This document shows, piece after piece, positions 1,403 to 55,292 of a stretch of DNA of 64,000 nucleotides. The stretch's first letter is position 1. Each line of letters starts with the position of its first letter. The stretch is from Euglena gracilis. Taxonomy: Eukaryota. Location: contig CP154954.1 of NCBI GenBank assembly GCA_039621445.1, positions 10,621,521-10,685,520 on the forward strand, given 5' to 3'. The notes under the pieces are model-generated. The model was not told the DNA's origin and ran no database searches. It saw nothing but the letters and a program-made list of their open reading frames with translations. The position numbers and the translations under genes were made by a program.

Positions 1403-1690
1403 TGGCAGCCTCCAACTAAAGGGACCCCCCCAGGGGGGGGTCCCTATAATTGGATCAGGGGGTCAAAATAGTTTTTTTGTGTTAATGATGGAATAGGGTT
1501 AGGTGCGCGACTTAGGGTTAGGGTTAGGCCCAACTTATAGACGGGTGTTAGGTGTACAAGTTAGGCCTGAAGTTAGGCCAGAATAGCACACCTAACCCTA
1601 TTCCATCAATAACACAAAAAAAAATTGCCGCCCCCTGATCCAACTATAGGGACCCCCCCTGGGGGGGGTCCCTTTAGTTGGAGGCTGCCA
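1403..1690. mobile_element. MITE with long TIRs (TGGCAGCCTCC...GGAGGCTGCCA), flanked by TA
   Basis: About 60-bp imperfect inverted termini, TA on both sides, internal TTAGGG-like motifs. An end fragment recurs at ~2624-2641. Confidence 0.85.
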
Positions 1691-1815
1691 TATATCCATA
1701 TATCATATATCAATATATATATATATATATCACAATATATCTATATATACATATATATGTATATATATATGTCCATATATATGGATATATATATATATAT
1801 CCATATATATATATA

Positions 1816-2112
1816 TGGCAGGTGAGAACTTTAGGACCCCCCCCTCCCGGGGGGGGGTCCTAAAGTTCTCACCACAATGGCCACCCCCATTATTGAGGGA
1901 GCAGGGTTAGGTGCGCACATGCTAATTTGCGCTAATTGGCTATGTTGCGCTACATGGCTATGTTGCGCAAACATAGCCATGTAGCGCAACATAGCCAATT
2001 AGCACAACATTGCATGTGCGCACCTAACCCTACTCCTTCAATAATGGGGGTGGCCATCGTGGTGAGAACTTTAGGACCCCCCCCCGGGGGGTCCTAAAGT
2101 TCTCACCTGCCA
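1816..2112. mobile_element. Foldback MITE (TGGCAGGTGAGAAC...GTTCTCACCTGCCA), flanked by TA
   Basis: Near whole-length palindrome with an internal hairpin in each arm; TA on both sides. Confidence 0.85.
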
Positions 2113-2119
2113 TACCCGC

Positions 2120-2596
2120 CCCCCCCCCCGGGCAATTGTCACGCGACAAATCGGGCAGCACGGAGGGGGGTGACAATTTCCCAGGGTGACAATTTGGCCG
2201 GCACAGAGGGGGGTGACAATTGCCCGGGGGCGTCAATTGCCCGGGGGCGTCAATTGCCCACCCATGTAGGCCACATGAAATCCAAATGACCAAGAACACC
2301 ATCTGAAACACCAGTGAACACGCAAAAATGCAGCTATTGGTTGTGATATTGTGCAGAGCATTTGGTATGTGACATTTCTCAGCACGTTGTAGCGAAATAG
2401 AGGATCAATCGAGTCGTGTCGGCGAAAAGAAAATTCGCAAACATCTTCTGTGGGGGGGGGGTGACAAATTGGGCAGCACGGAAGGGGGTGACAATTTCCC
2501 AGGGTGACAAATTGGCCGGCACAGCCAGGGGTGACAATTGCCTGGGGGCGTCAATTGCCCGGGGGCGTCAATTGCCCGGGGGGGGGGGGGGGGGGG
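2120..2596. mobile_element. MITE family with GGGGTGACAATT/CAATTGCCC subrepeats
   Basis: Poly-C...poly-G ends with repeated motifs; second copy at ~5875-6297. Confidence 0.7.
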
Positions 2597-2666
2597 TATA
2601 TATAAATATATATAGTTGGAGACTTTAGTTGGAGGCTGCCATATATCCATATATATACATATATGC

Positions 2667-2697
2667 ATGTATGTATGTATGTATGTATGTATGTATG

Positions 2698-2728
<31 letters not shown>

Positions 2729-3015
2729 GTATGTATGTATGTATGTATGTATGTATGTATGTATGTATGTATGTATGTATGTATGTATGTATGTATGTAT
2801 GTATGTATGTATGTATGTATGTATGTATGTATGTATGTATGTATGTATGTATGTATGTATGTATGTATGTATGTATGTATGTATGTATGTATGTATGTAT
2901 GTATGTATGTATGTATGTATGTATGTATGTATGTATGTATGTATGTGTGTGTGTATGTATGTATGTATGTATGTCTGTATGTATGTATGTATGTATGTGT
3001 GTGTACATGTATACT

Positions 3016-3604: not shown

Positions 3605-6600
3605 GCATGCAGGGTGCGGCCTGGGGTGAATGTGTAGTGGGGGTAGGTGGGGAGGGGAACAGGGTTTTTTTTTTGAAGCGCGGGGGGGGGGCGGTCCCCA
3701 CCCCCCCGCCCCCGGGGGGGGGCCCCCCTCTGGGGGGGGGGGGTCCCAGGGGACCCACCCACTTCGGCCGAAAATGGCCAAAATGCTAAAAATAGCATCC
3801 ATTTCTATAAGATGTTTCGTGTTCTGATCCCGCTTTTTTACCAGGAAAACCGGGGGCGCCGAAGGCGCCCCCGGTTTTCCTGGTAAAAAAGCGGGATCAG
3901 AACACGAAACAATTTTGAAACCGTGTTAAGAGACCACGATGTACACCGGTAGTGAAAACCGTGTTCAAGTCCACGTGATTCGCGCAAAAAAAATGCCGAT
4001 TATAATAAACACGTGTACAAAAATGGGGTACCTTGGTACATTGCAATTGTACCGTGTTACAAACACGGTACAATGCAAATGTACTGTGTTTGTAACACGT
4101 GTACATTGTACGGAAAGCGTGTTTACTCTTTTGGTAACACGTGTACATTGTACGGAAAGTGTGTTTACTCCTTTTGGTAACACGTATACACTGCAGGAAA
4201 GCGTGCTTACTTTTTTGGTAACACGTGTACTTTTACGGAAAGCGTGTTTAGACTTTTGGTGACACGTGTGCATTATGCTAAAACGTGTTTCAAAAACGCC
4301 TTCACACCCTTCACAGCCATGATGCGCCTGGCTAACCTCGCTGAGGCCCGCATGCCTGCCCCTCCCACTGTTAAGCAGTTTGTGGAATCCCTCCAAAAGG
4401 TGAAATCTCCATCTGAGGAAGTTGATGCTTTGTTCCCCCCCCCAGATCTGGTCTCGGCAAAAGATTACCGTCGCGACCGCATGGCTGCCCTGAATTGTTT
4501 TACAGAATACATGGGGGTTTGCGCAGCCCATGGGGTACAACACGCGACGTTGGACGACTGTTTTTTGGGGTGGGCCCGCTGGTGCATTGATGCTCGGGTG
4601 TTGTACGTGACACCCGAGCAACAAGTCGCCTGCGTTGCTGCCCGTACGGAGAGAGCTGGAACAGATTTTCGGGTTCGTTCCATGCCTGTTTTGTCTTTCC
4701 GTACATACCTCAATGCCCTTGTTTTTTTGTATAAAGTGTCAGACCGTGACGGACCTCCAATTGTGGCCTCCTCTGCTTCTCAATTCCCCAAATTCCTTGC
4801 TTTCTTTGCCCCTATGGTGACGAAAACGTGCTTCCCCACCACCTCCGACGTAGCTCGGTCTGTTCCTTGTGTGAGTTGTGCGGACACCTACCATTTTGTG
4901 TGTGCTGACCTGTGCCGAGCTCCCAAACGTCCCTGGAAATGCCCGGGATGTTTGTGATGCCTTTCATGATGTGCTATTGTTCTTGGCCAACAGGCCACGA
5001 GGTGTTTGCAGCATGCGTCTGCATACCCCCCCCCCAAATACACCAACTTCCCGCCGCCGTGTTGCTTCTTGCTTCCGTTGAGCAGTATGTCCATCGTTTC
5101 ATGCATTCTAGTTATGCTGTAACCCTACAGAATATTTTTCATTTATAACACGGAACAATGCAAATGTACCGTGTTTGTAACACGTGTACATTGTACGGAA
5201 AGTGTGTTTACTCTTTTTGGTAACACGTGTACACTGCAGGAAAGCGTGTTTACTCTTTTGGTAACACGTGTACATTGTACGGAAAGCGTGTTTACACTTT
5301 TTGGTAACACATGTACATTGTACGGAAAGCGTGTTACAAACACGTTTTCCACCGCTGAACACGTGGACTGAACACGGTTTTCACGGCCGGTGTACATCGT
5401 AGACTTAACACGGTTTCAAAAAATTCGGCGCCTGCGGCGCCGAAAAAAGATATACCCACCAGCCCCTGCCCCCCCCCCCGGGGGGGAGGGGGTCCAAAAG
5501 ACCCACCCATCCTACCCCCCCCCAGGGGAGGGGATCCAAGACTAAAAAAAAACCACCAGAGGGGAAGCAGGCGTAACGGTGGTTGGGTCGGTCTGATTGG
5601 GGGATGTCGACTCCGTCGAAAGCAGAGTTTCGAGTTCCATGACAAAAAAAAACTCAAAGGGTGAGGGTGGAAGGATTCAGGATTCGGGATTGGTGGATGA
5701 CAAGAAACAGAAAACATTATATATGTAACATATGCATATTATATATAATATAATATATAATATAATACAATAAATTAAACATAATACATATATATAATTT
5801 TATGTATAATAATATATTTTATTCATCTTTTTTATTTATAATATATATGATATAATATATGTATAAATACCCGCCCCCCCCCCAGGCAATTGTCGCGCGA
5901 CAAATCGGGCAGCACGGACGGGGGTGACAATTTCCCGGGGTGACAATTTGGCCGGCACAGAGGGGGGTGACCATTGCCTGGGGGCGTCAATTGCTCGGGG
6001 GCGTCAATTGCCCACCCATGTAAGCCACATTTTAAACCAAATGGCCAAAAACACCATCTGAAACACAAGTGAACGCAGGGAAAATGCAGCTACGATCGCG
6101 ATATTGTGCAGAGCGTTTGGTATGCAAAAATTCCAGCACATTGCAGCGAAATAGAAGATCACAGAACAATGCTGCAAATGGGGGGTGACAAATTGGGCAG
6201 CACAGAGGGGGGGTGACAATTTCCCAGGGTGACAAATTGGCCGGCACAGCCAGGGGTGACAATTGCCCGGGGGTCAATTGCCTGGGGGTGGGGGGGAGTA
6301 TGGAACTTGCATGGTTGAGCAATGAGAGGAGCATGAGTAAAAGAAGTGAGTTGAGTCGATGGGCCTTTCCCACCCCTGCACGAGGCTGTCGTTCGGCCCG
6401 GCCCGGCCCACCCTGGGCGTCTGCGACCGCCGCCGGGAGAACGGCGACTTGCCCGCGCTGCGCTCGCGGCTCGCGGACCGGAACGGGGACGTGGCGCGGC
6501 GCCACGCCCCCTTCAGCCGCGCGCCGGCGGACGACGGCGTGGTGGACGTGGCCAGGCAAAGACAGTCATCCCCAGTTATTGGTCTCCGGTGGGTTCCGGT

Positions 6601-9600
6601 GGGTTGCCTTGGGGGGGGGCAGGGTTGTATGGGAATCTCCGAGGGGGGGACCCCCCCCCTTCCGAAACTAGGGGAGGGGGGTGGGAGACCCCCCCCCTCC
6701 TACCTCCAGTTTTCGGTCGCCGAAATTTCGGCCGCTTTTGGGGGTCAAAAGGTCAATTTTTCTGAAATTTCTCAAAAATGGTGGTGAATCAAAAGAAATG
6801 TCCAAAACCTAAATTGAAGCCCTTAAAATGCCAGATCTAACAGTATTTTGATTTCCTGGCAACTCCCCACCTGTCCCGATTTATGGTCATTTTTGGCCAT
6901 TTTGCCAAAATTTCACGTTGAGCCCCCAAAAAAGTCCTAAAATACAGTCCCAGCGCGAAGCGCCAGAAAATTTTTTTGCCCCCCCAGAGGAAGGGGAGGG
7001 GGGTGGGGGAGGACCCCCTTCCGAAACTAGGGGGGGGGGGACCCCCCTACCACCTTACCCCCCAAGGGGGGGGTGACCAGGGTGTGACGTAGAGCTGAGC
7101 TCTTTGGGAGACCACCCCGGCCCGGCCCGCGAAAAACGCTCATTTTCGGCTCAAAAACAGTTTTTCTGGGTCAGGGAGGCCAAAAAACACGGTTTTGGGG
7201 CCAAAAATTTTTTTCGATTTTTTTCGACTTTTTTGACCGGTTTTGACCCAAAGTCATGGGTTGGTGGCCCAAAACGGGGCGCCGGCGGGTCGAAAAACGC
7301 TCAATTTTGGCTTGAAAACACTTTTTTCGGGTCCAGGAGGTCAAAAATCATGGTTTTGGGGAAAAAAAATTTTTTCGAATTTTTTCGACTTTTTGACCCA
7401 AAAATGGCCAAGTCCACCGGCCAGCGGGGCGGGCCCCAGCCACGGGGGGGCATGGGGGGGGGGGGGGTCCAGGTCGGAAAAAATTTTTTCGCTCAAAAAA
7501 CACTTTTTTTGATGTTCTGAAGTGAAAAAAAGTGCTTTTGAGCGAAAAAATTTTTTCGAAATTTTGGGTCCCGACCTGCCACCCGACCCCCCCTAGCCCA
7601 GCCGCCCTGACGGCGCCCGGTGGGGTCCCCAAATACCCAAAACTGGCCCAAAATCGCACAACCAGGCCCCGGGAACCCCAAAAAACGGTCAACCCCCCCC
7701 CCTAAACCTAATGATTGACCCCCTGGTTTGGGTCCCAACTCCTCGTCTAGCCCGAGATACGGCCAATTTACGGTTTCGGGCCCCGAAATGGCCAGAACTG
7801 GCCAAACTGGCCCAAAACCCCCAAAACGGCCATATCTCGGGCTAGGCGAGGAGTTGTCCCAAACCGCGCATACCGATCGATAGGGCGTTCCAAGGTCGTC
7901 AAATGAGGTCGCCATCACTTTTCCTCAACTCCGCAGCGTTTTCGAGATATTTTGAATTTTTCGATTTTTGGACCCCAGCCCGGCCGCCCTCGAACCCCCG
8001 CCGGGGTCCCCGAATACCCAAAACTGGCCCAAAATCGCACAACCAGACCCCGGGAACCCCAAAAAACGGTCAAAACCCCCCCCTAAACCTAATGATTGAC
8101 CCCCTGGTTTGGGCTCCAACTCCCCGTCTAGCCCGAGATACGGGCAAATTACGGTTTCGGGCCCCGAACGGGCCCGAAATGGCCAAAACTGCCAAACCTG
8201 CCCCAAACCCCCAAAACGGCCGTATCTCGGGCTAGGCGGGGAGTCGGCCCAAACCGCGCATACCGATCGATCGGGCGTCCCAAAGTTGAGGAATGACGTC
8301 CTCTTTACTTTTTCGTAACTCCGCGGCGTTTTCGAGATATTTAAAATTTTTAATTTTTTTGACCCAAAAATAAACTGAAAATTTCCCAGAAAAAAAAAAA
8401 CGGTAGACAACTTTTTTGCTCGGGCCATATCTCCAGACTGGCGGGGAGTTGCGGGTAACCGAAGGGCTCTGGAGGTACTAGGGACCGTCCCTAACCTATA
8501 GGCCATTAACTTTGGGGGCCACGAAATCCAGTCACATCGACGGGGGGGGGGGGGGGGGTGGGGGGGGGGGGGGGGGGGGGGGGGGGCGGGGGGGTCCGAC
8601 CCCCCCTCCGGCCCCGGTGGTAAGCTAAAGAGATAAGAGCTCAGCGACCCCCCCCTACCACCTACCTCATGTCTGCGGAGCTCCCCATACAACCCTGGGG
8701 GGGGGACTGGGAAAAAAACATCCAACAAGGCGATCTGACCGGATACTCTTTTTGCATCATGCAGTTGGTGCACAGCATAACCACATGCATGGCCCCCGGG
8801 GTCAGGATCTTGGCCTCCTTTTTGTCCCACATGAGGCACCTTTTGGCTCTGTTTAATGGCCCAGCCAGGTGCTCAAAATATTTTGCCCCATCGCCACGTG
8901 GGATACCACATGATGTGATGTACTCACCCCAATGGCCACCAAATATTGGTCATCGCGAATCATATCCTGCAACCTGTTTAAACCTGAAGGAAAGGGTCTT
9001 TTGAATAATCATAAAAAGGCAACCTGTTGTTCTGCATCCCTCTTTGCAGCATGAGACTATGGGGCCATAAATCCAGCAGAAAAATATGTGCATGGGAAAA
9101 AATCTCCAGTGGGATCCGGTGGGATCCGGTGGCTGTCCTTGCCTGGACGTGGCAGGGGGCTCCGAGGGGGGCTCGGAGGCGGGCCGGTGGGGCACAGCCA
9201 TCCTCCCCCGGAAATTGTTGCCGTGCCAGCCGGAGACCCTTACAGCTAGGCGGGGCCAGTTGCACATACTTGGAAAGTGGATTTCCTGGACAGATGCCCA
9301 CCCTCCCCTGCGTGACGTGACGGGGACAGGGGTGTGTGAATGTGGACATGTGGATACGCGGAAAATATGCAATTGATGCCATAATTGGCGATTTTCCGGA
9401 CCCCCTCTTGCAAAGTCATTTCGGCCATCTTGGGCCCATTTAAAGGGCCATTTCGGGCTGTTATCGGTCATTTTCCACCATTTTTTTGACCATTTTCGAA
9501 CACTTGGCCATCTTCGGGCCATTTGGGGGCCATTTTAGTCAGGACCATTTTTGGGGCCATTTTTTGGCAAAAGCCATTCATAGGGTCATTTGGGGCTGAA

Positions 9601-34886: not shown

Positions 34887-35295
34887 CAGGGTTCGATATA
34901 AGGAGAGGAGGGGGGGTCCGGACCCCCCTGCGGGCCAGGAGGGGGGGGGGGGTGGGGGCCACCCCCCCCCACCTAAACAGTGGCGCGGTCAGGGTGACCG
35001 ATTTTCGGCCCGGCGCGAAGCACCGTGCCGAAATTTTTTGACCCCCCCAAATCGACCAAAAGTGCCATTTTGGGCACTTTTTGGGCAAAAATTGGCCAAA
35101 AATGCAAAAAAAATTCGGCGCAAAGCGCCGGAGGAGAAAATTGACCCTTTTTGGGGGGGTCCCGGGTACCCCCCCAGGGTCGGTCCGGACCCCCCTTGCA
35201 GGTGGGGGGGGTGGTCCGGACCCCCCTGCTGGCCAGGAGGGGGGGGGGACACCCCCCCACCTAAACCATGTACGCCCTCCTTATATCGAACCCTG
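34887..35295. mobile_element. hAT-like MITE (CAGGGTTCGATATAAGGAG TIR), degenerate 8-bp TSD
   Basis: Perfect ~19-bp TIR; flanks GTGTCACC / GGGTCGCC. Confidence 0.88.
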
Positions 35296-35879
35296 GGGTC
35301 GCCCCACTCATGGAGGCGTGGGACCCCCCCCAAAAAACCGGGTTGTCTGGAGGCATCCCCAAAAAATTTCTAGCAGGTACCCCTCTCAAAGTGAGTCCTC
35401 TGATCCTCGCTCCCCTCTGTGTGTGGTGGGTGCCACCTCCCAAAAGACATCACTGGTGGTGTTGTCGCTTTGTATGTGATTTTTCCCGGATCCTCAAAAA
35501 GCCAAATGCAGATGGTATCGACTGTGCAATTTCTCTCACACAATGCCTCAGCTGTTATGTGCCTGCTTGTGGCGTGCTTGCTTATGCTTTATTGTGGCAT
35601 CGAAATGTGAGCACCAATGCTGCCGATTTTCTTATTTCACGGTATGTCTTTTTTCATGTGTAAAATTCTCGGAAAATTCAAAAAAGAAGCAATGCAAGCA
35701 ATGTCAATCAAACTGACTGTTTTCTTTCGTTAGTTTCAGCGAAAAACGCGCAGTGCGCCGCCCGAGGGCCTGGGGCGACCCCCCAGGGGGTTGGTCCTGG
35801 ACCCACCCACCCCCCGGGGGTCTTCCGAGTAAAGAAGAAGCATGGGTGGGAAAGACTTGGACACAAACGGCCTCCGCGT

Positions 35880-38800: not shown

Positions 38801-40092
38801 CCCCTGTGACAAGCTCTGGAATATATTTTTAGTGACTCCCCAAGGGGTGGGCATTTTTCCCCTGGCCCAAACCCCCACCCACTATTTTTGAAAACCCACC
38901 CATCCACGACCCCCCCCCGCCGTTGAGTGATCAACAAATAATTTGGGAATCACTTAAGAAGTGCACCTGCAGCCCAACGTTGATTGGTTTTCCCTAAACT
39001 GAACAGAACCTTCCATTTTGTGTTGTATGTGCGTACACACAGGAAATAAGCCATCACATGCGACATTTGCACGCACAAGCATCAATAAATAAAGAACTGT
39101 AAAAAAATCAGTCAACAACAACAGCTCAAAGAAACTTGGACAGATCCCGGGGAAACCCGGGAACACTTCGGCCTGGCGCAACCCCTCAGGGGGATCCGTC
39201 CGCCCCTGCCCGAGCCTCCGGCAGCTCCCAGTGCTCCGCCAGCAGGCCCACGGCGGCCCGCACGAGGTGGGTGCACGCCTGCATGTGGGCGGCATGGGTG
39301 CGGCGGCCGGTGGAGGACAGCCCCCGCGGGGGGCCGGGGCGGTGCGGGAAGGCCTGGCGGGGGGGGGGGGGGGGGCGGTCCGACCCCCCACCACCGATAG
39401 GGCTGCATGGATTCCCGGACAGCCCTGCGTGTGGCTAAGGGCCGAGCCCAGGCCGGTGCTTCAGACCACCATCAAGGGTGAGGGCTTCGGGCTGGCATTC
39501 TCAGTACCAGGGGCCCTCCCGACCCCCTGTCCATGGCACAGAAATGCGCCACGAACGGGCCAATAGCACATGAGTGTGCCACCGGTACAAATGCACAATA
39601 AAATAATATGGAGGGAGACAGATTGGGAATAATAATAATAATTAATATGAATAAGAATAAGAGAAGAAATAAAAAAGAAGAAAAAGAAGAAGAAGAAGAG
39701 AAGTGAGAAAAAGAAGAAGAAGAAGAAGAAGAAGAAGAAGAAGAAGAAGAAGAAGAAGAAGAAGAAGAAGATGAAGAAGAATAAGAAGATGAAGAAGAAG
39801 AAGAAGAATAAGTTGAAGAAGAAGAAGAAGAAGATGAAGAATAATAATAAGAAGAAGAAGATGAATAAGAAGAATAATAAGAATGAAGTAGAATAATAAG
39901 AAGAAGAAGAATAATAAGAAGAATAAGAAATAATAAAGAAGAATAATATAAGTAATAGGAAATAAGAAATAATAATAATATCACAACAACAAACAACAAC
40001 AACACCACAACAAGAAAACAAACAAACAACAACACAACAACAACAATAATAACATATATATAGTTAATAATGGCACATATATATGTTTAATA

Positions 40093-40155
<63 letters not shown>

Positions 40156-43100: not shown

Positions 43101-46100
43101 CATTCACAAAACTTGGACTCCCGTGCCTCCCAAAAACCGAAACCTGTCCTCCCACTCCCGTCACAAAACGCTGGATCCCACGTTTGCGTCCCACACCCTT
43201 TTGTGGAAAAGCCTGGTCAGGGCTCGAGGCGTCCGACTTGCTCACACTGATGCGGCGGAGGTGCACGCTGTCCCGGCGCTCTCCACCAATTTCAATGACG
43301 CTGCGCCGGTCGAACGAGCGCCGGTCGGAGGAGCCGCCAGGACCAGGACTGACTGCGGGAATGCCTTTTGTCCCATCTGGCACTGGAATCAAAAGAGGAA
43401 AAAACCCGAGAAACGTTTGAGCAGAAAACAAAGGATGCAGTGCTTGAAAAAGAACTGCTAACACATGCTCAAAATGAAAAATGTATCGCTGAAAAAAGAG
43501 CGGCATAGAGCAGACAGTTTTTAACCAACCCCGGGGGGGTCCGGAGTGCCCTTGAGTGCCTGCCCAGGCAGGCACACCCCCCCCCTCCCCGGCGGGGGTC
43601 GGATTTCAGCCTGTGCCCAGGAACTTTCCTCAGAAAATAGGCCATTTTCCTTGAAAATAGGCCCTTTTTGAGCCTTCCGGCGCCTTTGGCGCCGGAGTGC
43701 CTGCTAGGTACTTTTGGCCAAGCCCTACCAGTCCCCCCGGGGGAGTTGGATTTGGAGTGCCTTGGAGTGCCTGCCCAGCAGGCAACCCCCCCCCCCTAGT
43801 TGCACTAAGGCTTCTTGTCTGTTTATGGCCGGCGCTAACTTCGCTTCTGGCCCAGCTGGCTGTGTGGCCCCCTTAGTGGTACCCCTTACGCCAGTGCTCT
43901 TTTGCTCCGCCTGGCCGGGTGAGCAACTCTGGTGCAATTCCAGCACTGTAAAGCAACCCCCCCCCCCGGGGTGGGGTTGGCACCCAACTAAAATGCAGCC
44001 TGGCATAGAGGCAGTTGGTTGGTTCCTCAAAAAAGCAGGAAAACATTTCAAAATGAGGTTTAAGCTGAACCATTTGGACGGAAGAAACAACGTGATGATC
44101 TGATTGGCGGGTTGAAAAGGCAAACAAAATGAGGGGAAATGATCATCCAGTGTTTTTCAGGGCTGAGTGATGAGTCCTGATCGGCAGAGACGCTGATGCT
44201 CGGGCGGCGGTCAGGGACAGATTCCAACCCAACAGCGGACTGGCGCCGAAGATTTCCGTCCCGGGGGCGATTCGGGGCAGCAGGAGGGGTTATCCACCTC
44301 CGACCAATTCGAGCAAAACAAAAACTCATTTCAAAAATCCTGAGTGCCAAATTTTGATTTGAAAAAGGTTCAAGATTGTCCCTTGCACCAAAAATATAGG
44401 GGGAACTGTCCCCACTTTGACGGTGTACCCGTGAGGAGGGTATTAAAGGAGGGTAAAATAAGTGGGAAAGGAGGGGCCTTGGGCCTCCTCCTCTACAGAA
44501 AACTTTGGTCCGAAATGAAAATAATTTGGGTCAAAAAAACCCTAACGCATTTTCGCGGACGTTTATGAAAAAAAAGGCCTTTCTTCGCCCTTCTTCTGGC
44601 CTGGTGCTGTTTACTTTTTTCGCCCATGTTTTTTTTTTTTGCTTTGCCTCTCGTCCCTTTTGGTTGTGTATGTGGAGATGGCCGGAGCCTGGCGGGACTC
44701 CGGACACCCCCCCCCCAGCCAGATCAAAAGGGGGTGGTCTGAACTGTCTCCCCCCTGGGGGGGGGGGCTGACCCCTTACCCCCCATGCAGGACCAACGCT
44801 CACTCAATATTAAAGAAAATGAAACACAACCACAACACCAATCCACTGGCCAAAGGATGGTTGTGAGGCGCTTGCTTGCCATCATAAGGGGAATAGTTAT
44901 GCCATGAAAAGAAGCCTGTTTTGTCCGCTTTTTCCCCCTTTTGACACAAAGATTTCTGCAGGGTATGTGCACCATCAGCATTTCATCGCCAAATGCTTAT
45001 GGAAACGACTGATGCAAAGAGGAATTTTCACAAAGGTTTCATCGTGAAAATAATGCAAAATATAAAAAAAAGTAAAAAAGAAGCCAAAGCCAACAAAAAA
45101 AATGTGAAACAGAAAAATATATAATTCAAAAGGATCCTTCTTCAAAAGGCAGCTTTTCGATGACAAACAAATGAAAAGATGTGGGACCCTCCACCTGACT
45201 GGTATAGAGCCACTCCAGGTAAGCCTTGACCCAGTGGGCCAATCCCACAGAGGACAAGTGGGTGAGGAGCTCCATCGCCAGGTCTATGATGCAAGCAATG
45301 GGAAACGGAATGCCAGAAGTCTTCCACATACAGCATATGGACTGAAAGACTTCATGCTTTCCATTGGGGTGGAGGTCGGAGGAGAGTTCAAACAACTCTG
45401 CAAGTGTCGATGGTATGAAGACTTATAACTCACCAAAGGTGACATGCTTGGATAACAACCCGGGATGGGGCACCCTGCAGCTTAACAAGCCTTCAGGTGT
45501 AAAATCACGAACTGAATTGGAGGGCGGGTGTGTGCGCCGCAAACCTTGCCGCAGCCCGACCATGAGGCCCGTCAGCCGCTGCAGCAGCTTGCGGTGCACC
45601 TCCCCGCTCTGCGAATTTGCCGCTGTCTCCAACACCAGCTCCAGTGACTTGGGACTGGTGCGGATTTGCTGTGTAGAAGCAGAAGTAGGGGGGGGAGAAA
45701 ATACAAAAAATGATAAGATGCAAAAGAAACAAAACAAAAAAACAAACAAAACAAACAAAACAAAACAAACAAAACAAAACAAAACAAAACCGTTTTGGCC
45801 ATCAAATGCCAAGTATCTCGAAAACGAAGCAAAAAAAAATTAAGCAAAACACCCGGATACCTAAATTGAAACCCTATAGCCCATTGAACGGTTTTTTGAT
45901 TTCGCTAAACTTGCTGCCTGGCCAGAGATATTGCTTATTACTTTTCGGCCATTTTTTTGGCTGAAAAATGAATGTACCAAAAAAATTCTCAAAAATAGGA
46001 CCCGGGCCACTGGCGCCAGGCCGCCAGGCCGGGCCACACCGGTCCCCTGGGCCGCTGGCCGGGCCACCAGACCGACGACTGGGCATGTTGCTTTTGGAAA

Positions 46101-47001
46101 CCAGGAGCAATGATCAAAACCTGGGGAAAGGTCTTGCCTTTTTTTTTGCTTTCTGTGCCTCTGGTAAGCTTCGCTCTCATCCAGTCGATTTCAAAATCCA
46201 ATGCTTTTCCTCAAGCCACTGTTGGAGGCTAGGCGCGCCCCCCGGGGGGGGGGGGTCCGGGACCCCCCCCGCGGCCCCCACACGCCGCCCGCGCGGCCAC
46301 TCGCCCCCTCCTCGACCCCCCCCCTCCCCCACTGTGCCTAGCATGCCAAAGAAAAAAAATTGTGAAAAAAACGCGACTTTTTGAGGCCCAAAAATGGTCA
46401 AAAATGACCACTTTTGGACATAAAATGGCAAATTTGGGGTCGCACGCTGCCCAAAAAGCATTTTTTAGCTCAAAAACGGCCCAAAAATGGCCAAAAATGA
46501 CCACTTTCCGGACCCGAAAATCACCGATTTTAGGACGCGCGTCGCCCGCGCGGCCGCCCTCAACCCCCCTCCCCCCCCCCCCCTGCGGCTGCCCGCGCGG
46601 CCGCTCGCCCCCCTCACCCCCCCCCCCCGCTGTGCCTAACCTCCGTTGACTGAGGCATTGGAAAAGGGGGACTCGCCCTTTTGTTTCCAAACGTCCCTGG
46701 AAATGTTCGGGGCGTTTGTCTTTTGTGACTCATGCTCTCCACCATGGAAACCACCAAAGCTTTTTGTCCACCGCTGGTGTGAGAACATACATCTCTTTGT
46801 GAGGTTTGTGGACCCCCCCCCGGGGGGGGGAGGCTGCAGCTGCTAGGTCTGATTTTGGCCAAGCCCAACCATAGGCACCCCCCAGGTTCAAGACACACGG
46901 ATGCAGAGAAGAAGCAGATACCTGCTGTAGCAGGACAATGGCATCCGAGGATGCGAGACAGGCGAGCACTCGGAGCATCGCCTCGTCCTTGGCCAGGTCT
47001 C
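35880..47001 (-). CDS. Large multi-exon protein of unknown function (helical, with a low-complexity middle); true 5' and 3' ends unresolved
   Basis: Exons: 47001-46922 (DLAKDEAMLRVLACLASSDAIVLLQQ), 45668-45545, 45490-45434, 45397-~45200 (..LAMELLTHLSSVGLAHWVKAYLEWLY), 44275-44183, 43338-43219, ~41943-41864 (LVKAVPLETFQAHLHIVVWWVLL), ~41686-41452, 40386-40315, 39443-39409, 39295-~39210, 38143-~38037, ~36364-36280, ~35965-35880. Several junctions are phase-consistent with paired ends; others are unresolved. Probable further exons at ~47160-47350 and ~34300-35550. Confidence 0.7.
39630..40052. repeat. (GAA/TAA/CAA)n trinucleotide tract followed by (TA)n to ~40155
   Basis: Directly visible; intronic. 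Confidence 0.95.
42014..42218. mobile_element. CAGGGTTTTT-family MITE, 7/8 TSD
   Basis: ACCAGCGT|CGGGG...CCCTG|GCCAGCGT. Another copy at ~42675-42934. Confidence 0.85.
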
Positions 47002-49313
47002 CATGACAGGCAACCATTTAGAATTCTCACAAACAAGGGTTTATCAAACGACGACCCGGGGGGGGGGGGGGGGGCGGGCCGGCTGGAAAAAGGTGCTCGC
47101 TGGAAGAAAGGTTCTGGCTGGACCCCCCCCTTGGCACAATCTTCATGAGTTAAGCACCATCCCATCGAAACTCATCGAAGAGCTCATGTGGAAGCAAATG
47201 CACAAGATACCTTGGGTTGGCTATTCTCCACCTTTTCTTACATTTTTTGAAGAGAACTTCATCGCTTGTATTTTGTTTTTCATCTTTTGGGCTTTGAGTG
47301 CTATTTTGCACAGATACCCCGACAGGAGGCGGGAGACGCCGACTGCTCCACTGCCAAGGTCACAGAGAGGTCAGGGGGCCAGGAGGTCAGGGGCCAGGGG
47401 ACACAGGGGAACTGCCCCCACAAGTGAACACAAACATTTCTTTTGTTGGCAGGACTAACGTTTCTTTTATATAATATATTTGTAAACTTAATGATAATAT
47501 CTATATTTAATATCTATATTATTATATATTTATTAAATATTACAATAACCATTTTCTCCTCACAAGCATTCCACTGGAAGAACAAAAAAATATTTATGGG
47601 TTCTTGGCAACGTAGCTTTCTGATGTTTTAAGTTTTGTTGAAGGTTGATTCCGCATTTGAGATCTGGAGCTCATGTGGGGCAGCTTTATTGCTTGCCAAA
47701 TTTTATTGCCTCAGAAAAAAATTGTCTGGCGAATGTTTGGTCAAAAGCCAAGGTGTGAACTTGTTGGCTTTTTTTTAATTTTGGAGTTAGTAATTGGGAA
47801 TTTGGATTTGGTTTAAGGGAGGGGTCCACTCCTGTCCTTTTCTCTTTTGGCATTTCTTGCTGTTTCAGCAAGTGCCTTTGCTTTTGTTTCCTTTCATTTG
47901 GTGAGGCGAACTTCCACGGAGGGGAGGCGTACGGAGGGGAGTCGTGGGCTCGGTTTTTTTTCTTCAGGGCGGGGGACATTTCTCAATTTTTTTTGTTGCT
48001 TATTTTTTGAAAGTAAGATTCTGTAGACTTTCATGCATTTTATGAAACCTCTCACACGAACAGAAGGGTGGGTTCCCCCGGAAATTCTGCACAAAGTGCC
48101 TCTTTTCTTTGACAGCCCGAAATTCAGCCCGAAATTTCGATGGGAAACCCAAATGCACAGCAGAAAAATCCAATTTTTTGAAATAAGGCCAATGGGAAAC
48201 TCAAATGGTGGAGAGCTTATCCCCGTTGCAGCGGGTGGGGGGTGGTAATTGGCCTGGAGAAAAATTGCATAGAATTGCGGAAATTGCAGGAAAAAATGCT
48301 GAAAAATGCGGAAACTGTGCATTTGGGAATATGTACACTTCTGCTGCAGGGGAATTTGAAAAAGTTAACAAATTTGCCATTCTGTGCGGTTTGAGTTGTT
48401 ACACTCACACATTTTCCAACAAAAAAGTCAAAAAAAAATGCAACAAAAAACCTGATTTTTGTGACTTTGGGAATTTTCTTAATTTTTAGAAATATGGAAT
48501 TTGTTGGCCGAAAAAAAAACACAAAAAAAAAGTCAAGATTTGCAAATTCTGGCAAATTGCAACAACAACAAAGCACCTGTTCTTCCCCTTGTTTGTGAAG
48601 CGTTCAAAAAGTTCCAAAGCCCATTCCCCCTTTCGTTTCAGGTTCATGCGGGAAAATAGCGGAAGGGAAAAAAAACTGAGAAACAAACTGTGAAAAATTT
48701 TTGCAAATTGCGGGAGAATTGGGGGGAAATCGGAAATTGTGGGAAAACCGCAGAAACAATCCCCCTGCGTTGCATACCATTGATCACGGGATTTTACAGA
48801 CCAAGAACAGTGCTTTGGCCAAATTTTTAGGATGGCGCGGGGGCAATACGGCACCTTCGGTGCCGTAGTCCCCGCCTCGGGTTGGAGCAAACACATTAAT
48901 TAATTAAAATTATTGACACATGGGAGGAGATCATCCTGTCAATGTCTTGCCTCACTTGTTCAACCCAAAATTGACCAAGAAGTCTTGCCGACCATCTTGC
49001 CCTTTGGGCAGCAAACTATCGTCCAACACGTAGAGAAAAAATTCATTCTTCACACATGTCACGCCGATGAATTCTCAGTCTCGCCCCCCCCTCTCAAGAA
49101 TCCATCAAAAACAAGTGAATGTCTGCTCCATGAGCGTTGGCCACTTGCTGGTATAACGTAGCCAATGCCCCTGATCAAAATGATCAAACGAGGAAAAGAA
49201 CACACGCACGCACGCACGCACGCACGCACACATGCATGCGCGCTCACACATCCGCGTGCACACACATGTGCGCTCACACATCCGCGTGCACACACATGTG
49301 CGCGCGTGTGTAC

Positions 49314-49697
49314 CAGGCTTTTGCTTAAGGCTTTTTCTTGCCCGGGGGGTACTGGCTGGACACTGGAAAAAATGGACTAGCTAGACCCCCCTCCGTCGTT
49401 GGGGGGTCTGGGGGTCCCCCCAACTGTAAAAAAAATTCCCTTCGGCGCTGTGCGCCGAGGTGAAAATGAGGTTTTTAATGTTTTTTGGATGATTTTGTTC
49501 CAAAAATTCCCAAAAATGGCCAAAAACGGGCATTTTTGGCAATTTTCCGGCGCTTCGCACCGGTCACTGGAAAAAAAGTTCCACTAGTTAGCGCTGCCAG
49601 CAGACAGGTCTGCTAGAAATCCCACCAGCCAAATCAGGACTAGCTGCAGTCCAGCCCCCCCCCGGGGGGGTACTGCAATCCCTGAAGCAAAAGCCTG
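49314..49697. mobile_element. hAT-like MITE (CAGGCTTTTGCTT TIR) with perfect 8-bp TSD GTGTGTAC
   Basis: TSD at 49306-49313 and 49698-49705. Confidence 0.92.
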
Positions 49698-51026: not shown

Positions 51027-53145
51027 CAAGGTTGACGGCTTGTTTTTTTTTTGAAACAAAAAAAGCATGTTTCTTTAATAAAAAAAACGTCATGGAGGGT
51101 TTGGGGTAAATTTTTTTGCAATGTTTTTTTGGAAAAAAGTTCATTTTTTATCTCTGCAGCATTCATTTTTTGTCTTTTTTTGGGGTTGAAACCGTGTATT
51201 GGGGCTCTGGCTTCACGCCCGAACCGGCGTTCTGGACGCCGGTTTGGCGCAGAAATTTCTGCGCCGAACCGGTGTCCAGGAAGCCGGATCGGCGCAGAAA
51301 TTTCTGCGCCGAACCGGTGTCCAGAACGCCGGTTCGGGCGGGAAAACGGCGTCCTGGGGACCGAAAATGAAAAGTGCCAAAAAGTGTCCAAAATGGTTTG
51401 TAGACATGAGGCAATCATATCTGAGCACTTTTTGGGGGGTATTTGGCCAGAAATTGGGGTATTTTGTGCAACAACAATTTCCATTTGGCCAAATCTGGGG
51501 ATTTTCTGAAATAGAATACCATGCAGCAGGCCTGAAATCTAAGGCCATCTAAAACCCTAGAGAAGGGTTATCGATCAAGGGGCAACATGGCAGGTGAACA
51601 GTGTATTTTGGAATTTGCGAAAAGGGTCCAAAAATCGTAATTCTGAAAAACCCAAGGGGTCCAGCTAAAATTTCCTAACCATAATTCTGAAAAACCCAGG
51701 GGAGGGTCCAACCAATTTTGAAAACACCCAGGGGGACCAAAATTTCCCAACTGTAATTAACATTTCCCAACAATTTTGAAAAATTCCCGGGGGGGGGGGT
51801 CCAGCCAAAATTTCCCAACCGTACTTCTGAAAAACCCTAGGGGGGGCTCCAGCCAAAAAAAAATTTTCAACCGTGTTTGTGAAGAAATCCAGCCAAAATT
51901 TCTGAACCGGAATTCTGAAAAAAAGGGGGATCAAATCCCAACCATAATTCTGGAAGAAAAAAAAACCAGCGGGGTCCAACCGAAAATTCGGCATTGCAAA
52001 TCTGAAAAAATCTGGGGGGGGTCCAGCCAAAATTTCACAACCGAGATTCTGAAAAAACCTAGGGGTGGTCCAACCAAAATTTTTTTCCAAATCGTAATTC
52101 TGAAAAAAAACCTTTCGATTGATGGGTAACCTGGCATCAGACAGATGAAAACTTCAATCGGCCGATCGACATGGCCATGAGCCCAAAGGATCCCAAAAAT
52201 GCCCAAAAATGTTCAGAAACTGGATATTTAGGGCGAAATTGGCCTTTATTCCTTGAACGCCGGTTTGGGCGTGAAGCCAGAGCCCCTAATCCACGGTTTC
52301 AACAACTGTGTCCAGAACGCCGGTTCGGGCGTGAAGCCGTGTTCCAGAACGCCGGTTCGGACTGCCGCCCGAACCGGCGTTCTGGAACACGGCTTCACGC
52401 CCGAACCGGCGTTCTGGACACAGTTTTCGTATCAGAAAGCGTGATTTTTTGCACCAGAAAACACAGATTTGGAAGCACTTTCACACATAAAAAAAACTTT
52501 AGAGGGGGTGTTCCCCCCTGTGACCCCCCCCCCGACCCGACCTGAGACCCTTTTCGGCCCATTTTTTTCTGAAAAATAACTTGGCTAGTGATGCCTAGTT
52601 TGACAAAATATTCAGGTAGATTAATAATTTTGAGGCATAAATTTTGCAAAATTTGGAGTGGTGATGCCAAATTTGGGGTCAAAATACCCCCCCTTATTGT
52701 CCCACCGACCTCCCCCCGGGAGGCCCGACCGGACAATATGGGGGGGGGGGGACAATATGGGGGTACCAAAGGAATTTCATTGGCCGAGCCAAAAAAACCC
52801 CCCGTCGGCCGGGGCCGAGGGACAATATGGGGGGGGGGACAATATGGGGGGGGGGTACTAATTTTAAGTTTGGGGATTCCTAATTTGGAGCCTAAAAAGG
52901 ATTTTCCCCAAAAAAAATTCGTTTTCGTTGATTCCTAATTTGGCCACCGAAAATGTGATGTTCCCCGTGACCCCCCCCCCCGTGACCCGAACCACCCCCG
53001 AAAAATTTTCCTCAAAAATGGCGATTTCGCAAGGAAAAAGGTCAATTTTTGCTTTTTCAAAAAAAACATGTTTTTTGTGTTTTTCCCCACAAAATCATGT
53101 TTTTTTGTTGTTTTTTTAAAAAAAACAAAAAAAACGTCAACCCTG
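51027..53145. mobile_element. 2.1-kb composite hAT-like insertion (CAAGGTTGACG...CGTCAACCCTG), perfect 8-bp TSD ACGGCTGG
   Basis: TSD at 51019-51026 and 53146-53153. Removing it restores colinearity with copy 1. Confidence 0.88.
52687..52856. mobile_element. Small MITE (CCCCATATTGTCCC...GGACAATATGGGG)
   Basis: Very similar copies at ~61392-61563 and ~62215-62386. Confidence 0.85.
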
Positions 53146-53522
53146 ACGGCTGGCATGCGTTGCTGTACGAACGGAGAGGGCTGGCACCAATTTTCGGGTG
53201 CATTCCATGCCAATCTCCACTTTCCGTACGTACCTGAACCCCCTTGTGTTTTTGCACAAGGTGTCAGATTGCAACAGTTCACCAATCGTGGCCTCCTCCG
53301 TCTCTCAGTTCTCCAAGTTCACAGCCTTCTTTGCCCCTCTGGCAGCGAAGGCTTTGGATGAGAAGCTGCTAGATGGAAGGGGCATCCATCCAACAACGTT
53401 CTCACCAAGGAGGAATTGATTACGGTGGTGGCCGCGGTACAGGAGAAAAGCATTTTGGATGTCCAACGACGCACTGTGCCTTGGTTTTACCATTGCGTTT
53501 CGTGTATCTCATCCAACGGCAC

Positions 53523-53989
53523 CAGGGTTGGATGGGAAGCCTTGAGGGGGGGGGGGTCGGACCCCCCCCCCCGACACGGAGGGGGGGTCGGACCCCCCCC
53601 CTCCTACCTCGAAACTGAGGGGGGGCCGAAAAATTTCGATTCCATGGACGGGCAAAGGGCCGGAAATCGGGTCGAAATTGGTTAAAAAAACCCAAATCCA
53701 AAAATGCTCATTTTTTGAAATTTTTTGAATATTTTTTGGGGGGAAAACGCCAACACATCAAAAAATGGGCATTATGTCCAAAAGTGAGCAAAAGGGGTGT
53801 TTTTTGCTCATTTTCCTGCGCACAGCGCCGGAAGAAAATTTTCTGCAATTTTTGGCACCTGGGGTGGGGGTCCGGACTCCCCCTCCCAACATCTGGGGGG
53901 GGGGGTCCAGACCCCCCCCCCCCCCCACCTTACCCCCCTAGTGGGGGGGGGGGGGGTTGGGACCCCCCTACCACCTACCTCAATAGCTG
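53523..53989. mobile_element. CAG...CTG insertion with perfect 8-bp TSD AACGGCAC
   Basis: TSD at 53515-53522 and 53990-53997; related sequence at ~24360-24790. Confidence 0.85.
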
Positions 53990-55292
53990 AACGGCACTTA
54001 TCATTTTGTGTGCGCTGACCTCCGCCGGGCTCCCAAACGTCCCTGGAGATGCCTGGGATGTTTGTGATGCGGTGTGTCCGTAGTGTGTCCTGGCCGTCGA
54101 GCCACGAGGTGTTTGCAATATGTTTGCATATATCCTCCCCTATTCCTCCCCCACTGTCGTTGGCGACCCTTGGAGACACTCAACAATCATCTGGTATGAT
54201 GATCTTTCTGTCCGGTTCCCTTTGGGTAGTGAACACAGTTTTTTTGGCAGATAAATGTGTTCAGTCCACGTGTGCAATGTCAATAAATGCGTTCAGATCA
54301 CGATTTTTTTGTGCAGGAAACCGTGTTCAGTCCACGTTTACAGTGTCAATAAACGTGTTCAGATCACGATTTTTTGTGCAATAAAACGTGTTCAGTCCAC
54401 GTGTGCAGTGTCAACAAACGTGTTCAGTCCACGTTTATCGTCGCTGCACACGTGGACTAAACACAGTTTTTCACGACGCTGTACATCGTGGACTGAACAC
54501 AATTTCAAACGCCCTTTTGCATAGCTCCAAAGGTTTGAAAAACTGCTCAAAGAAGGTTCGCAATGAGATCCAAAATGGACAGAGCTGGGTTCAAGAGTTG
54601 TGACCATTTTTGGTAAATTTTCGGGCAGTTTTTCAATCATTTCAGGCCGTTTTTTGAGATAGTCGACCATTTTTGGATATCTTACAGTTTGGACTATTTT
54701 GGGTTATGGTTGGGCCATTCTTCGAACAATTTTTTCAAACCATGTCAGTCCATTTCGGGTCATTTTTGTCATTCGCCACAACTCATTTTTTTCAATTTGT
54801 ACAGGTTTGATGATTCAAAACACAGTTCTCACAACATTAAAAGAAGAATTTTGTTCCGAAACACAAATTATCAGGGTGTCTAGAGGAGGATGTTTGAGGG
54901 TGGCAAAAAAATAACTTGTGCGGACACCTAAATTCTGGCGCTTAAATTTCCATCTCGCTTCTCGGCCACTCACTACCTCGTTGTGGGCACCACAGTGGTG
55001 AAATGCAATGAACATTTTCTTGTTTCATCCGTTGGCAAGACACCAACTCCGTTCTGAGTCCATGTGCCTTACAAGCTTTTAAAATTTGTGTCTCAGGGTG
55101 AAGTGTTTGCTACAAAAAACTTTAAGCAAGTGGTTTTTTATTTCCAAAAACTTGCCCCCCCCCCCCAGCTCACCCCTTTGACTCCTAAAAAAATGGGAAA
55201 TTTTCTACAACTGATTGTGATCAACAAAATTATCAAATTGGCATTCAACGTGTTTCCCAAAAAAATGCCCCACCACCAAAATGTTTCCAGAC

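Follow-up and report, generated by a model that had tools for sequence, protein, structure and literature searches.

The origin and the removal of euglenid nonconventional introns have stood as open questions since the 1990s, and an earlier consensus for these introns is reportedly due to Milanowski et al. (2014/2016). The nonconventional intron code of Euglena has since been given as N3-CDG...CH'G-N5-6|R (Nomura et al. 2025, PMC12501133), and 61.2% of nonconventional introns follow it. In the knock-in work of that paper the spacers are fixed at 3 nt and 5(-6) nt, any change in length of the 5' spacer is not tolerated, and pairing beside CAG/CTG is required for splicing; fully artificial 50-bp introns on the same plan, with 12-bp complementary arms, were spliced. 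Flanking direct repeats were found at 84.4% of E. agilis introns, and conventional introns have such repeats too (PMC12501133). The available text of the paper leaves these 'slidable' direct-repeat introns out of the motif work and does not tie N3 plus N5 to a TSD length.

A transposon origin for these introns has been proposed in general terms, as the original prediction for this DNA correctly stated. Milanowski et al. 2014 (PMC3935182) suggested a MITE-like origin at a time when, by their account, not one transposable element had been recognised in a euglenid genome, and a 2024 review (PMC11282704) describes 'TIR ... TSD-like sequences' at nonconventional introns. According to this hypothesis, inverted-repeat elements in exons turn into introns and the direct repeats at the junctions are TSD-like; neither a TSD length nor a family or superfamily is given in the accessible parts of the two sources. 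The idea is the same for the present locus, which adds defined element families, a TSD of exactly 8 bp and a single case of splicing. The link between 3+5 and 8, and the element families described here, were not found in print.

The introners of Micromonas and Aureococcus, reportedly described by Huff et al. in 2016 (as cited in PMC11170887 and PMC7789003), and those of dinoflagellates follow a related plan, in which an inverted-repeat DNA transposon and its TSD make an intron and splicing takes the element with one TSD copy. Those introns are removed by the spliceosome at GT-AG sites formed from the TSD and the element (PMC7789003), whereas removal at the present locus would fall to a non-GT-AG, stem-measuring system. 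The introner elements of Amoebophrya (Farhat et al. 2021, PMC7789003) are, as here, non-canonical introns with inverted repeats (8-20 nt, forming hairpins that join the exon ends) and with direct repeats that overlap the exon/intron borders. The Amoebophrya repeats are variable and 3-5 nt long, in contrast to a fixed 8 bp here, equal to the added lengths of two spacers that experiments have fixed.

Nonconventional introns in two transcribed genes

RNA contigs and raw RNA reads were mapped to positions 34500-54499 (20 kb) of the window, the 64,000-nucleotide stretch of Euglena gracilis DNA that was analysed. Run X21 is on record as RNA and X20 is a DNA run, while the RNA status of X1 and X2 was guessed rather than recorded. 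Eight joints agree between RNA contigs from two runs and the raw reads of the run recorded as RNA, and none occurs in the DNA run. The contigs and reads reveal two minus-strand genes that carry nine nonconventional introns (A1-A8 and B2). The spliced reading frame is open over the nine exons of gene A, where minus frame 0 is the sole frame open through all 703 nt, and likewise over gene B. SNPs, for example at 35933 and 35948, separate both the DNA and the RNA runs from the window, and hence the runs represent another strain or haplotype.

29314..41962, minus strand: part of gene A seen, with nine exons and eight nonconventional introns (RNA joints)
..29343, 35863-35953, 36287-36362, 38037-38125 and 39210-39328, minus strand: exons of gene A (RNA joints)
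39430-39443 (14 nt), 40315-40386, 41452-41560 and 41860-41962, minus strand: further exons of gene A (RNA joints)
29344-35862 (A1), 35954-36286 (A2), 36363-38036 (A3) and 38126-39209 (A4), minus strand: introns of gene A (RNA joints)
39329-39429 (A5), 39444-40314 (A6), 40387-41451 (A7) and 41561-41859 (A8), minus strand: further introns of gene A (RNA joints)
45669..46921, minus strand: conventional GT..AG intron (B1) in gene B, the contrast case to the nonconventional introns
46922..46998, minus strand: exon of 77 nt in gene B, flanked by introns B1 and B2
47007..49125, minus strand: intron B2 of gene B, a CAG...CTG element of 2119 bp whose 8-bp TSD is perfect, CTCCATGA on the plus strand, at 46999-47006 and 49126-49133
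..45668 and 49126 to ~49171, minus strand: neighbouring exons of gene B (RNA joints)

Introns of this region had been described as having 3 nt before CAG and 5 nt after CTG, and five of the nine RNA-verified nonconventional introns do (A4, A6, A7, A8 and B2). Intron A3 has 3/6 spacing, and thus six of nine fit the strict code. In A1 (CAA..TTG) and A2 (TGG..CCA) the triplets differ but the 3/5 spacing is preserved, and A5 does not fit the N3-CDG...CH'G-N5-6 spacing. GT/GC-AG ends are absent from every register of all nine. In seven of eight introns the acceptor exon opens with a purine, the exception being A7 with C. For the duplex near CAG/CTG, z is at most -3 in A1, A2, A6 and A7 and lies between -0.9 and -1.7 in A3, A4, A5 and A8. 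The introns seen in RNA share spacers, triplets, acceptor purine and, in part, end-pairing with the code of Nomura et al. Judged by this intron code, the window would be nuclear DNA of a euglenid-type organism.

CAG...CTG elements and their probable superfamily

Non-autonomous DNA transposons of the cut-and-paste type are present in the window in ten or more copies. They belong to several families, which have in common CAGG(G/C)...CTG termini and exact 8-bp TSDs, a hAT-like pattern. The six insertions that had been listed from the sequence are all present where they were placed, and at least five further CAG...CTG elements lie within the window. The TSDs ascribed to the six are perfect over 8 bp in four cases and amount to 7/8 and 6/8 in the other two. 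CAA is indeed the first triplet at 51027-53145; the element at 42014-42218 has the predicted CTG end, but its first triplet is CGG and not CAG. The elements are given below without strand.

30287..30566: MITE, 280 bp, CAGGGG...CCCTG, TSD GGCTGTAC 8/8 at 30279-30286 and 30567-30574, terminal duplex z -4.3; nested within 29459-31119, inside intron A1 of gene A
29459..31119: non-autonomous element, 1661 bp, CAGGCACCTA ends (11/12), TSD GCCACCGG 8/8, z -5.5; inside intron A1
34887..35295: MITE, 409 bp, perfect 19-bp inverted repeat, TSD 6/8 (GTGTCACC / GGGTCGCC), z -10.2; inside intron A1
42014..42218: MITE, 205 bp, of the 30287 family, CGG start, CTG end, TSD 7/8; 52 nt beyond exon 41860-41962
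49314..49697: MITE, 384 bp, CAGGCTTTTGCTT ends, 17/20 inverted repeat, TSD GTGTGTAC 8/8, z -5.6
51027..53145: element, 2119 bp, ends CAAGGTTGACG / CAGGGTTGACG, TSD ACGGCTGG 8/8
53523..53989: CAG...CTG element, 467 bp, TSD AACGGCAC 8/8, ends otherwise pairing poorly (z +0.9)
6553..9145: element, 2593 bp, TSD GACGTGGC 8/8, containing the nested element 6620-8697
6620-8697: nested element, perfect 12/12 ends, TSD G8 and so uninformative
14941-15328: element, TSD 6/8
23790..24257: element, 468 bp, CAGGGG ends, TSD ACCCTGAG 8/8
43511..44002: CAG...CTG element, 492 bp, TSD GCATAGAG 8/8, weak terminal pairing

The sequence of 43511-44002 is high-copy in both DNA and RNA runs, and depth in the DNA run is very high over 34887-35295.

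Identical 8-mers flank 14 CAG...CTG pairs lying 60-4000 bp apart (three of them homopolymers), whereas 50 Markov shuffles gave 3.0 such pairs on average (between 0 and 6). Where terminal complementarity is at least 10/12, flanks of 8/8 are found at 5 of 188 CAG...CTG pairs and at none in each of 40 shuffles. The repeat stops at 8 bp, as the ninth base agrees in 5/14 cases at each of the two sides, which is about chance, and nine TSDs in the window are perfect and informative. Terminal duplexes have a z of -2.4 or lower in 8 of 11 folded elements, intron B2 having been folded on its own.

The end motif of hAT transposons is YARNG, which the CAGGG and CAAGG ends match and which the CAGGC and CAGAC ends miss at the fifth base. 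Splicing of Ds uses cryptic spliceosomal sites and usually leaves a footprint. Maize Ds has reportedly been seen to behave as an intron (Giroux et al. 1994, as cited in PMC3935182). The elements share with hAT-superfamily MITEs of the Ac/Ds type an 8-bp TSD, short imperfect inverted repeats starting CAG or CAA, and non-autonomous copies (0.2-2.6 kb). They differ in that removal, in the one spliced copy, is exact and that a transposase was not found among the window ORFs scanned. The hAT assignment of the original prediction draws on TSD length and end motif. Neither a transposase domain nor any credible Pfam family was found in the 245 of 423 window ORFs of at least 75 aa that were scanned. 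Judged from their termini and target sites, the elements probably belong to the hAT superfamily.

It is unlikely, if conceivable, that the elements are not hAT and were moved by another superfamily with 8-bp TSDs (Merlin, P or an undescribed one). The missing hAT transposase among the scanned ORFs would fit such a source, and so would the two Merlin families with 8-bp TSDs reported in E. gracilis (PMC8101967). However, Merlin inverted repeats end 5'-GG with a TSD of 8-9 bp (PMC8101967), and membership was rejected on this ground, as the TSD length agrees but the termini here are CAG. Moving the boundary to GG abolishes the flanking repeat. Agreement of CAGGG and CAAGG with the hAT motif also speaks for the hAT superfamily.

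Removal of intron B2 from RNA

The RNA joint 46998->49126 skips 2127 nt, which is the 2119 nt of the element plus one 8-bp TSD copy. Hence, in this single case, the element at 47007-49125 is spliced out together with one copy of its TSD and the coding sequence is restored. The joint has exactly 8 ambiguous positions and the minus-strand frame remains open across it, with the reservation that extra letters between the joined ends are formally possible. Its depth is 160.5 in X1 and 107.2 in X2, with only three raw reads in X21 and none in X20. On the mRNA strand B2 reads GAG-CAG...CTG-TCATG|G, that is, N3/N5/purine, fitting the published code; unlike in the description by Nomura et al., the eight spacer nucleotides of this element are a single copy of its 8-bp TSD. 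GT-AG, GC-AG or AT-AC ends occur in none of the nine possible registers of the joint, and removal of B2 is therefore probably not spliceosomal. The ends of B2 pair weakly (-5.5 kcal/mol, z +0.5), a point against the mechanism proposed below, given the pairing that PMC12501133 requires.

The same joint would arise if the strains behind the RNA runs carried an empty site and their mRNA were collinear with their DNA. The 8-position ambiguity would be identical, and the SNPs at 35933 and 35948 do mark the runs as another strain or haplotype than the window. This polymorphism is nevertheless very improbable. Low-depth RNA contigs (depth ~3, as in other introns) lie inside the element at 47954-48138 and 48498-48696 with no differences, whereas depth is ~0 over the unique stretch 49841-50507 outside the joint-supported transcripts, and thus the element is transcribed and then removed. 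Moreover, the DNA run lacks the joint, and its depth over the unique parts of the element is 183-214, not under the single-copy level of ~60. Other parts of B2 are high-copy in this run.

Spacer lengths and the 8-bp target site

We propose that nonconventional (non-GT-AG) splicing recognises a stem closed by CAG/CTG, and that it would cut 3 nt ahead of CAG and, on the far side of CTG, after 5 nt or at times 6. As 3 and 5 add up to the length of the TSD, an element in a transcribed exon would leave with exactly one TSD copy, restoring the original mRNA, and its orientation should be irrelevant if, on the mRNA strand, a purine occupies position 6 of the TSD. Insertions removed in this way would therefore be born as scar-free introns. 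We consider it probable that CAG...CTG elements with 8-bp TSDs become scar-free introns through matching nonconventional splicing. The 8-bp match between TSD and spacer sum is presumably not a coincidence, and the same route may have given rise to other nonconventional introns. Scar-free removal was the central idea of the original prediction; its arithmetic is correct and has a natural instance in B2. Of the six elements listed there, two sit inside one 6.5-kb intron, and no RNA joint was found for any of the six among the 15 joints listed (964 further joints exist). The first intron base, said usually to equal the first base of the next exon, does so in only two of eight introns.

A wider reading, possible though on balance doubtful, is that the 3-nt and 5-nt spacers of the splicing code are the halves of the 8-bp staggered cut of one CAG...CTG transposon lineage, with which the splicing machinery co-evolved. 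Every exonic insertion, in either orientation, would then be excised scar-free from RNA, and the tolerance so gained would have allowed the elements to supply the larger part of the nonconventional introns, which account for roughly 70% in Euglena. 'Slidable' repeats would be decaying TSDs, and the excised intron circles would have the target site restored at their RNA junction, as CTG + 8 nt + CAG; no back-joints were found among the 15 joints listed.

The window supplies pieces that the debate had lacked, namely element families with intron-type CAG...CTG ends, a fixed 8-bp TSD equal to the summed spacer lengths of the 2025 knock-in experiments, and one element caught in splicing with one TSD copy. 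The proposed mechanism makes the quantitative prediction that, in introns anchored at CAG/CTG, flank identity peaks at exactly 8. On the same view, the 'slidable' introns that genome-wide motif work left out would be the young and informative class. Should the mechanism prove general, it would represent the first introner system to act through a non-spliceosomal pathway.

Ordinary MITEs might instead happen to satisfy the splicing code, most nonconventional introns arising otherwise and B2 being a rare accident in the absence of any introner system. Several observations agree with such convergence. The flanking 8-mers of the other seven introns with this geometry are not more similar than chance (in-register matches of 3, 3, 3, 3, 2, 4 and 5 of 8; mean 3.29 versus a null of 2.52; permutation p = 0.24), so that a TSD signal above chance is missing in seven of eight introns. 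The termini of these introns form G/C-rich stems that do not resemble the element families of the window. Each of the listed elements sits either in an intron or in sequence for which transcript evidence is missing, and the direct repeats at conventional introns of E. agilis (PMC12501133) point the same way. We nonetheless regard coincidence as rather unlikely. The chance of an exact 8-mer repeat immediately flanking CAG and CTG is ~1.5e-5 per intron, yet one of eight introns has it, and old TSD halves would occupy spacers that are called random in PMC12501133, hence drift is expected. By our own arithmetic from counts in the available text of that paper, slidable introns make up ~81% of the nonconventional introns of E. 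agilis compared with ~44% by chance (1-(3/4)^2), an excess that is what decaying TSDs would leave.

Elements and their target-site duplications

Direct reading of the sequence confirmed the six CAG...CTG insertions of the original prediction, and a scan of the whole window added further elements.

Elements and their target-site duplications (TSDs), by window coordinates
6553-9145: whole-window scan
6620-8697: scan; nested, TSD of eight G residues and hence uninformative
14941-15328: scan; TSD 6/8
23790-24257: scan
29459-31119: scan; contains the nested element 30287-30566
30287-30566: predicted; CAG...CTG, perfect TSD
34887-35295: predicted; TSD 6/8, inverted repeat perfect over 19 bp
42014-42218: predicted; CGG start, TSD 7/8
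43511-44002: scan
47007-49125: scan
49314-49697: predicted; CAG...CTG, perfect TSD
51027-53145: predicted; CAA...CTG, perfect TSD
53523-53989: predicted; CAG...CTG, perfect TSD

The perfect 8-bp TSDs claimed for four insertions are present as identical 8-mers abutting the element ends. The near-perfect TSD at 42014-42218 also stands, but the CAG start assigned to that element does not; the TSD at 34887-35295 matches at 6/8 positions. Several families with differing inverted repeats are represented; CAGG(G/C) ends are common to them and, among the elements compared, internal sequence is common only to 30287-30566 and 42014-42218. Several MITE families have a common internal build (30300-30560, 34910-35270 and 53550-53980), in which long G-runs and C-runs form GGGGGGTCCGGACCCCCC-type palindromes together with a mid-element CGGCGC...GCGCCG hairpin.

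Identical flanking 8-mers were found at 14 CAG...CTG pairs spaced 60-4000 bp apart, of which 3 have homopolymer 8-mers; 50 second-order Markov shuffles averaged 3.0 such pairs (range 0-6). The duplication stops at 8 bp, the next base being identical in 5/14 on either side. Among 188 pairs with complementarity at 10 or more of their first 12 bases, the flanks match at 8/8 positions in five, 7/8 in one and 6/8 in three, and each of 40 shuffles gave zero 8/8 flanks at such pairs. With looser ends (8/12 complementarity, CDG/CHG permitted) there were 13 exact adjoining 8-mers, compared with 4-6 when the 8-mers were displaced by 8-20 nt as a control, a background raised by low-complexity runs. Terminal duplexes, in RNA or DNA, far exceed those of shuffles in 8 of 11 folded elements (z from -2.4 to -10.2); terminal pairing goes little beyond CAG/CTG in 43511-44002, 53523-53989 and, less so, the CAA-ended 51027-53145.

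A candidate at 52613-55870 (7/8 TSD) was dropped: part of it is shared with 51027-53145, and a longer inverted repeat of 130 nt encloses its "ends". The equal 2119-bp length of 47007-49125 and 51027-53145 was put down to coincidence, as the two have no mutual similarity. Searches of public sequence collections with the 19-mer end of the 34887-35295 MITE and the 18-mer end of the 49314-49697 MITE returned no euglenid copies: the former matched one viral contig, by chance, with no similarity past the 19-mer, and the latter 20 metagenome loci over only 18-20 nt, apart from one imperfect match of 28 nt. At 34860-35295 a contig of the DNA run X20 (depth 35.6) seems to span both flanks (~34800-34859 and 35295-35790) without the MITE, which may represent an empty or rearranged allele and would then hint at recent mobility.

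Transcripts and the geometry of the introns

Gene finding from open reading frames, GC3 and 3-periodicity across the window gave no clear exons. The sequencing runs were of three kinds: contig runs presumed to be RNA, raw-read runs with an RNA record, and a single run that is probably DNA. No RNA run was indexed for 44500-54499, and raw-read RNA runs were chosen by species label. Contig runs X1 and X2 (RNA by presumption), raw RNA reads X21 and DNA run X20 were aligned to 34500-54499. One transcript contig (1572 nt, depth 232 in X1; 1686 nt, depth 181 in X2) yields six joints and a second transcript contig two, with 2-7 raw reads of X21 per joint. None of the transcript-contig joints occurs in X20, and at several of those junctions its contigs follow the genome without a break. 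The RNA runs differ from the window at 35933, 35948, 38075 and 39252, and X20 carries identical differences at 35933, 35948 and 39252; the strain or haplotype sampled in these runs is not that of the assembly.

Introns of genes A (introns within 29344-41859) and B, both minus strand; sequences as on the mRNA strand
A1: GTC-CAAGT...ACTTG-ACCAT; 3/5 spacing, variant triplet
A2: ATC-TGGGGCC...GGCCCCA-CCATT; 3/5 spacing, variant triplet
A3: spacers of 3 nt and 6 nt
A4, A6, A7, A8: 3 nt + CAG...CTG + 5 nt, inside the sliding range
A5: 101 nt, outside the code
B1 (45669-46921): conventional, GT-AG
B2 (element 47007-49125 plus one TSD copy): 3 nt + CAG...CTG + 5 nt, inside the sliding range

When joined, gene A (703 nt) is open throughout in minus frame 0 alone and gene B in a minus frame, which places both genes on the minus strand. 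In gene A, the exon piece 29314-29343 appears as a loose end before 35863, and a micro-exon (39430-39443) as a 14-letter insert at one joint. This 14-nt exon has a non-fitting intron of 101 nt (39329-39429) on one side and a fitting intron of 871 nt on the other. The gene A transcript continues at least 255 nt upstream past 41962, and the first 30 nt beyond that point match nowhere in the 64-kb window; either the next upstream exon falls beyond the window, or it is broken into very small pieces, or its sequence is divergent in the RNA strain. Two X21 joints on opposite strands, 39375->47058 and 46564->47058, are accompanied by poly-G loose ends and were set aside as artefacts. They arise from hundreds of raw X21 reads that terminate in poly-G or poly-C where the genome has G-runs (39356-39375, 46564 and 47058-47078), probably a sequencing artefact.

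The predicted spacing of 3 nt before CAG and 5 nt after CTG is thus given by RNA joints in A4, A6, A7, A8 and B2. A purine opens the acceptor exon in 7/8, and together with the RNA-supported intron ends this corresponds to the euglenid code 5'-N3CDG-/-CH'GN5-6|R in the accessible text of PMC12501133. The pairing of positions +4..6 with -8..-6, taken in the original prediction as established, likewise agrees with that text and with PMC11282704. The further claim that an intron typically opens with the same base as the exon after it fails, being true in only 2/8 introns. According to the knock-in experiments described in PMC12501133, the length of the 5' spacer cannot change, the 3' spacer has an optimum of 5 with 6 tolerated, the CAG/CTG triplets are essential, and introns of 50 bp designed wholly artificially, with complementary arms of 12 bp, undergo splicing.

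Excision of an element with one TSD copy

The joint 46998->49126 omits 2127 nt, which correspond to the 2119-bp element 47007-49125 plus one perfect 8-bp TSD copy (CTCCATGA, plus strand), and the junction is ambiguous over 8 positions. It is carried at depth 160.5 in X1 and 107.2 in X2 and by three raw X21 reads with three distinct starts, and is absent from X20; the joint was flagged "between: not known". The element had already been picked by the blind TSD scan. On the mRNA strand the intron reads ...TCATG|GAG-CAG......CTG-TCATG|GAG..., with GAG as N3, TCATG as N5 and G opening the next exon, and none of its nine possible registers has GT-AG, GC-AG or AT-AC ends. Folded separately from the 11-element set, its ends pair weakly past CAG/CTG (z +0.5). 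Inside the element, at 47954-48138 and 48498-48696, there are low-depth RNA contigs free of mismatches, as there are in other introns, and RNA depth is ~0 in a unique stretch outside the joint-supported transcripts (49841-50507). These observations together indicate that the element is present in the RNA strains, transcribed and then removed.

Element insertion duplicates 8 bp, and host splicing, as observed here and in the published experiments, places its cuts 3 nt and 5 nt away from a stem closed by CAG/CTG. An insertion into an exon would accordingly be excised along with one TSD copy, no more and no less. The symmetry of the CAG...CTG ends should make orientation irrelevant, provided that the sixth TSD base, read on the mRNA strand, is a purine. 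An excised circle would be expected to join as CTG + 8 nt + CAG, which for B2 would be CTG + TCATGGAG + CAG.

The predicted removal of an element with exactly one TSD is thus realized in B2, a single natural case; however, the seven other introns of the same geometry have no TSD excess. Their in-register flanking 8-mers match at 3, 3, 3, 3, 2, 4 and 5 of 8 positions, compared with a mean of 2.52 when flanks of different introns are cross-paired (56 pairs; permutation p = 0.24 for the seven). A 6/7 flank match of A4 in a 7-nt register was given no weight. Old TSD halves would sit in the spacers that PMC12501133, in its accessible text, calls random, and would be expected to decay; such decay would account for the seven introns without a TSD. 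Within the window, intron ends and element ends have no family-level similarity. Of the 15 RNA joints listed (964 others exist), none belongs to any of the six predicted elements: 30287-30566 and 34887-35295 lie within the 6.5-kb intron A1, 42014-42218 lies 52 nt past an exon, and around the three at 49.3-54.0 kb there is almost no raw RNA depth except in repeats.

The interpretation as a whole is partly supported: the geometry is sound, agrees with the published experiments and has one direct natural instance. The transposon route may have supplied a large population of nonconventional introns. In E. agilis, ~81% of these are "slidable" versus ~44% by chance, as calculated from counts in the accessible part of PMC12501133.

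Origin of the elements and relation to published work

The elements are DNA transposons. Each copy has its own TSD, in keeping with the sequence around it, a pattern that an RNA-borne route, in which an excised intron inserts again, would not give. The DNA transposons of the window are non-autonomous. The window contains 423 stop-to-stop open reading frames of at least 75 aa; after 178 low-complexity ones were left out, the remaining 245 gave no transposase in Pfam, the sole matches being three weak unrelated families (E 0.001-0.01). hAT transposons have the terminal motif YARNG. The hAT assignment of the window elements is suggested by the 8-bp TSD and by ends that partly fit this motif, with no transposase found. 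Merlin, reported in E. gracilis in the accessible text of PMC8101967, also has 8-bp TSDs; it is unfit for the window elements because its ends are GG and theirs CAG.

The original prediction stated correctly that a transposon origin had been proposed in general terms: a MITE-like origin was put forward in 2014 (PMC3935182), in text noting that euglenids had as yet yielded no identified transposable elements. A 2024 review describes terminal inverted repeats whose CAG/CTG occupy +4..6 and -8..-6, together with "TSD-like sequences" at intron borders (PMC11282704, accessible part), and a 2025 paper, as far as its accessible text goes, restates the MITE suggestion and leaves direct-repeat introns out (PMC12501133). 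TSD length, element family, superfamily and the 3+5=8 link appear in the accessible text of no open full-text paper found, subscription journals lying outside the search. The supplements listed for PMC12501133 include a sliding-distance distribution and intron datasets, in which the 8-bp signal may already be present. With the 8-bp geometry, the old MITE-origin hypothesis becomes sharply and cheaply testable. Introners of Micromonas and Aureococcus are, in the accounts accessible, close analogues and are spliceosomal; those of Amoebophrya are close analogues and non-canonical, with direct repeats of 3-5 nt (PMC7789003, accessible part). Transposon-born introns removed by the non-spliceosomal euglenid pathway are a variant on a known theme.

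Other features of the window include three closely spaced tRNA-like genes at 61964-62618 (Ser(tga), plus strand; His with the unusual anticodon atg, minus strand; Gln(ctg), minus strand), which could be either tRNA genes proper or repeats that derive from tRNAs. Large tandem arrays are present at 2662-3002 ((TATG)x85), at 31767-32637 within intron A1 (161-bp unit, 5.4 copies), at 39649-39929 within intron A6 ((GAA)x94) and at 63584-63873 (19-bp self-complementary unit, 15 copies).
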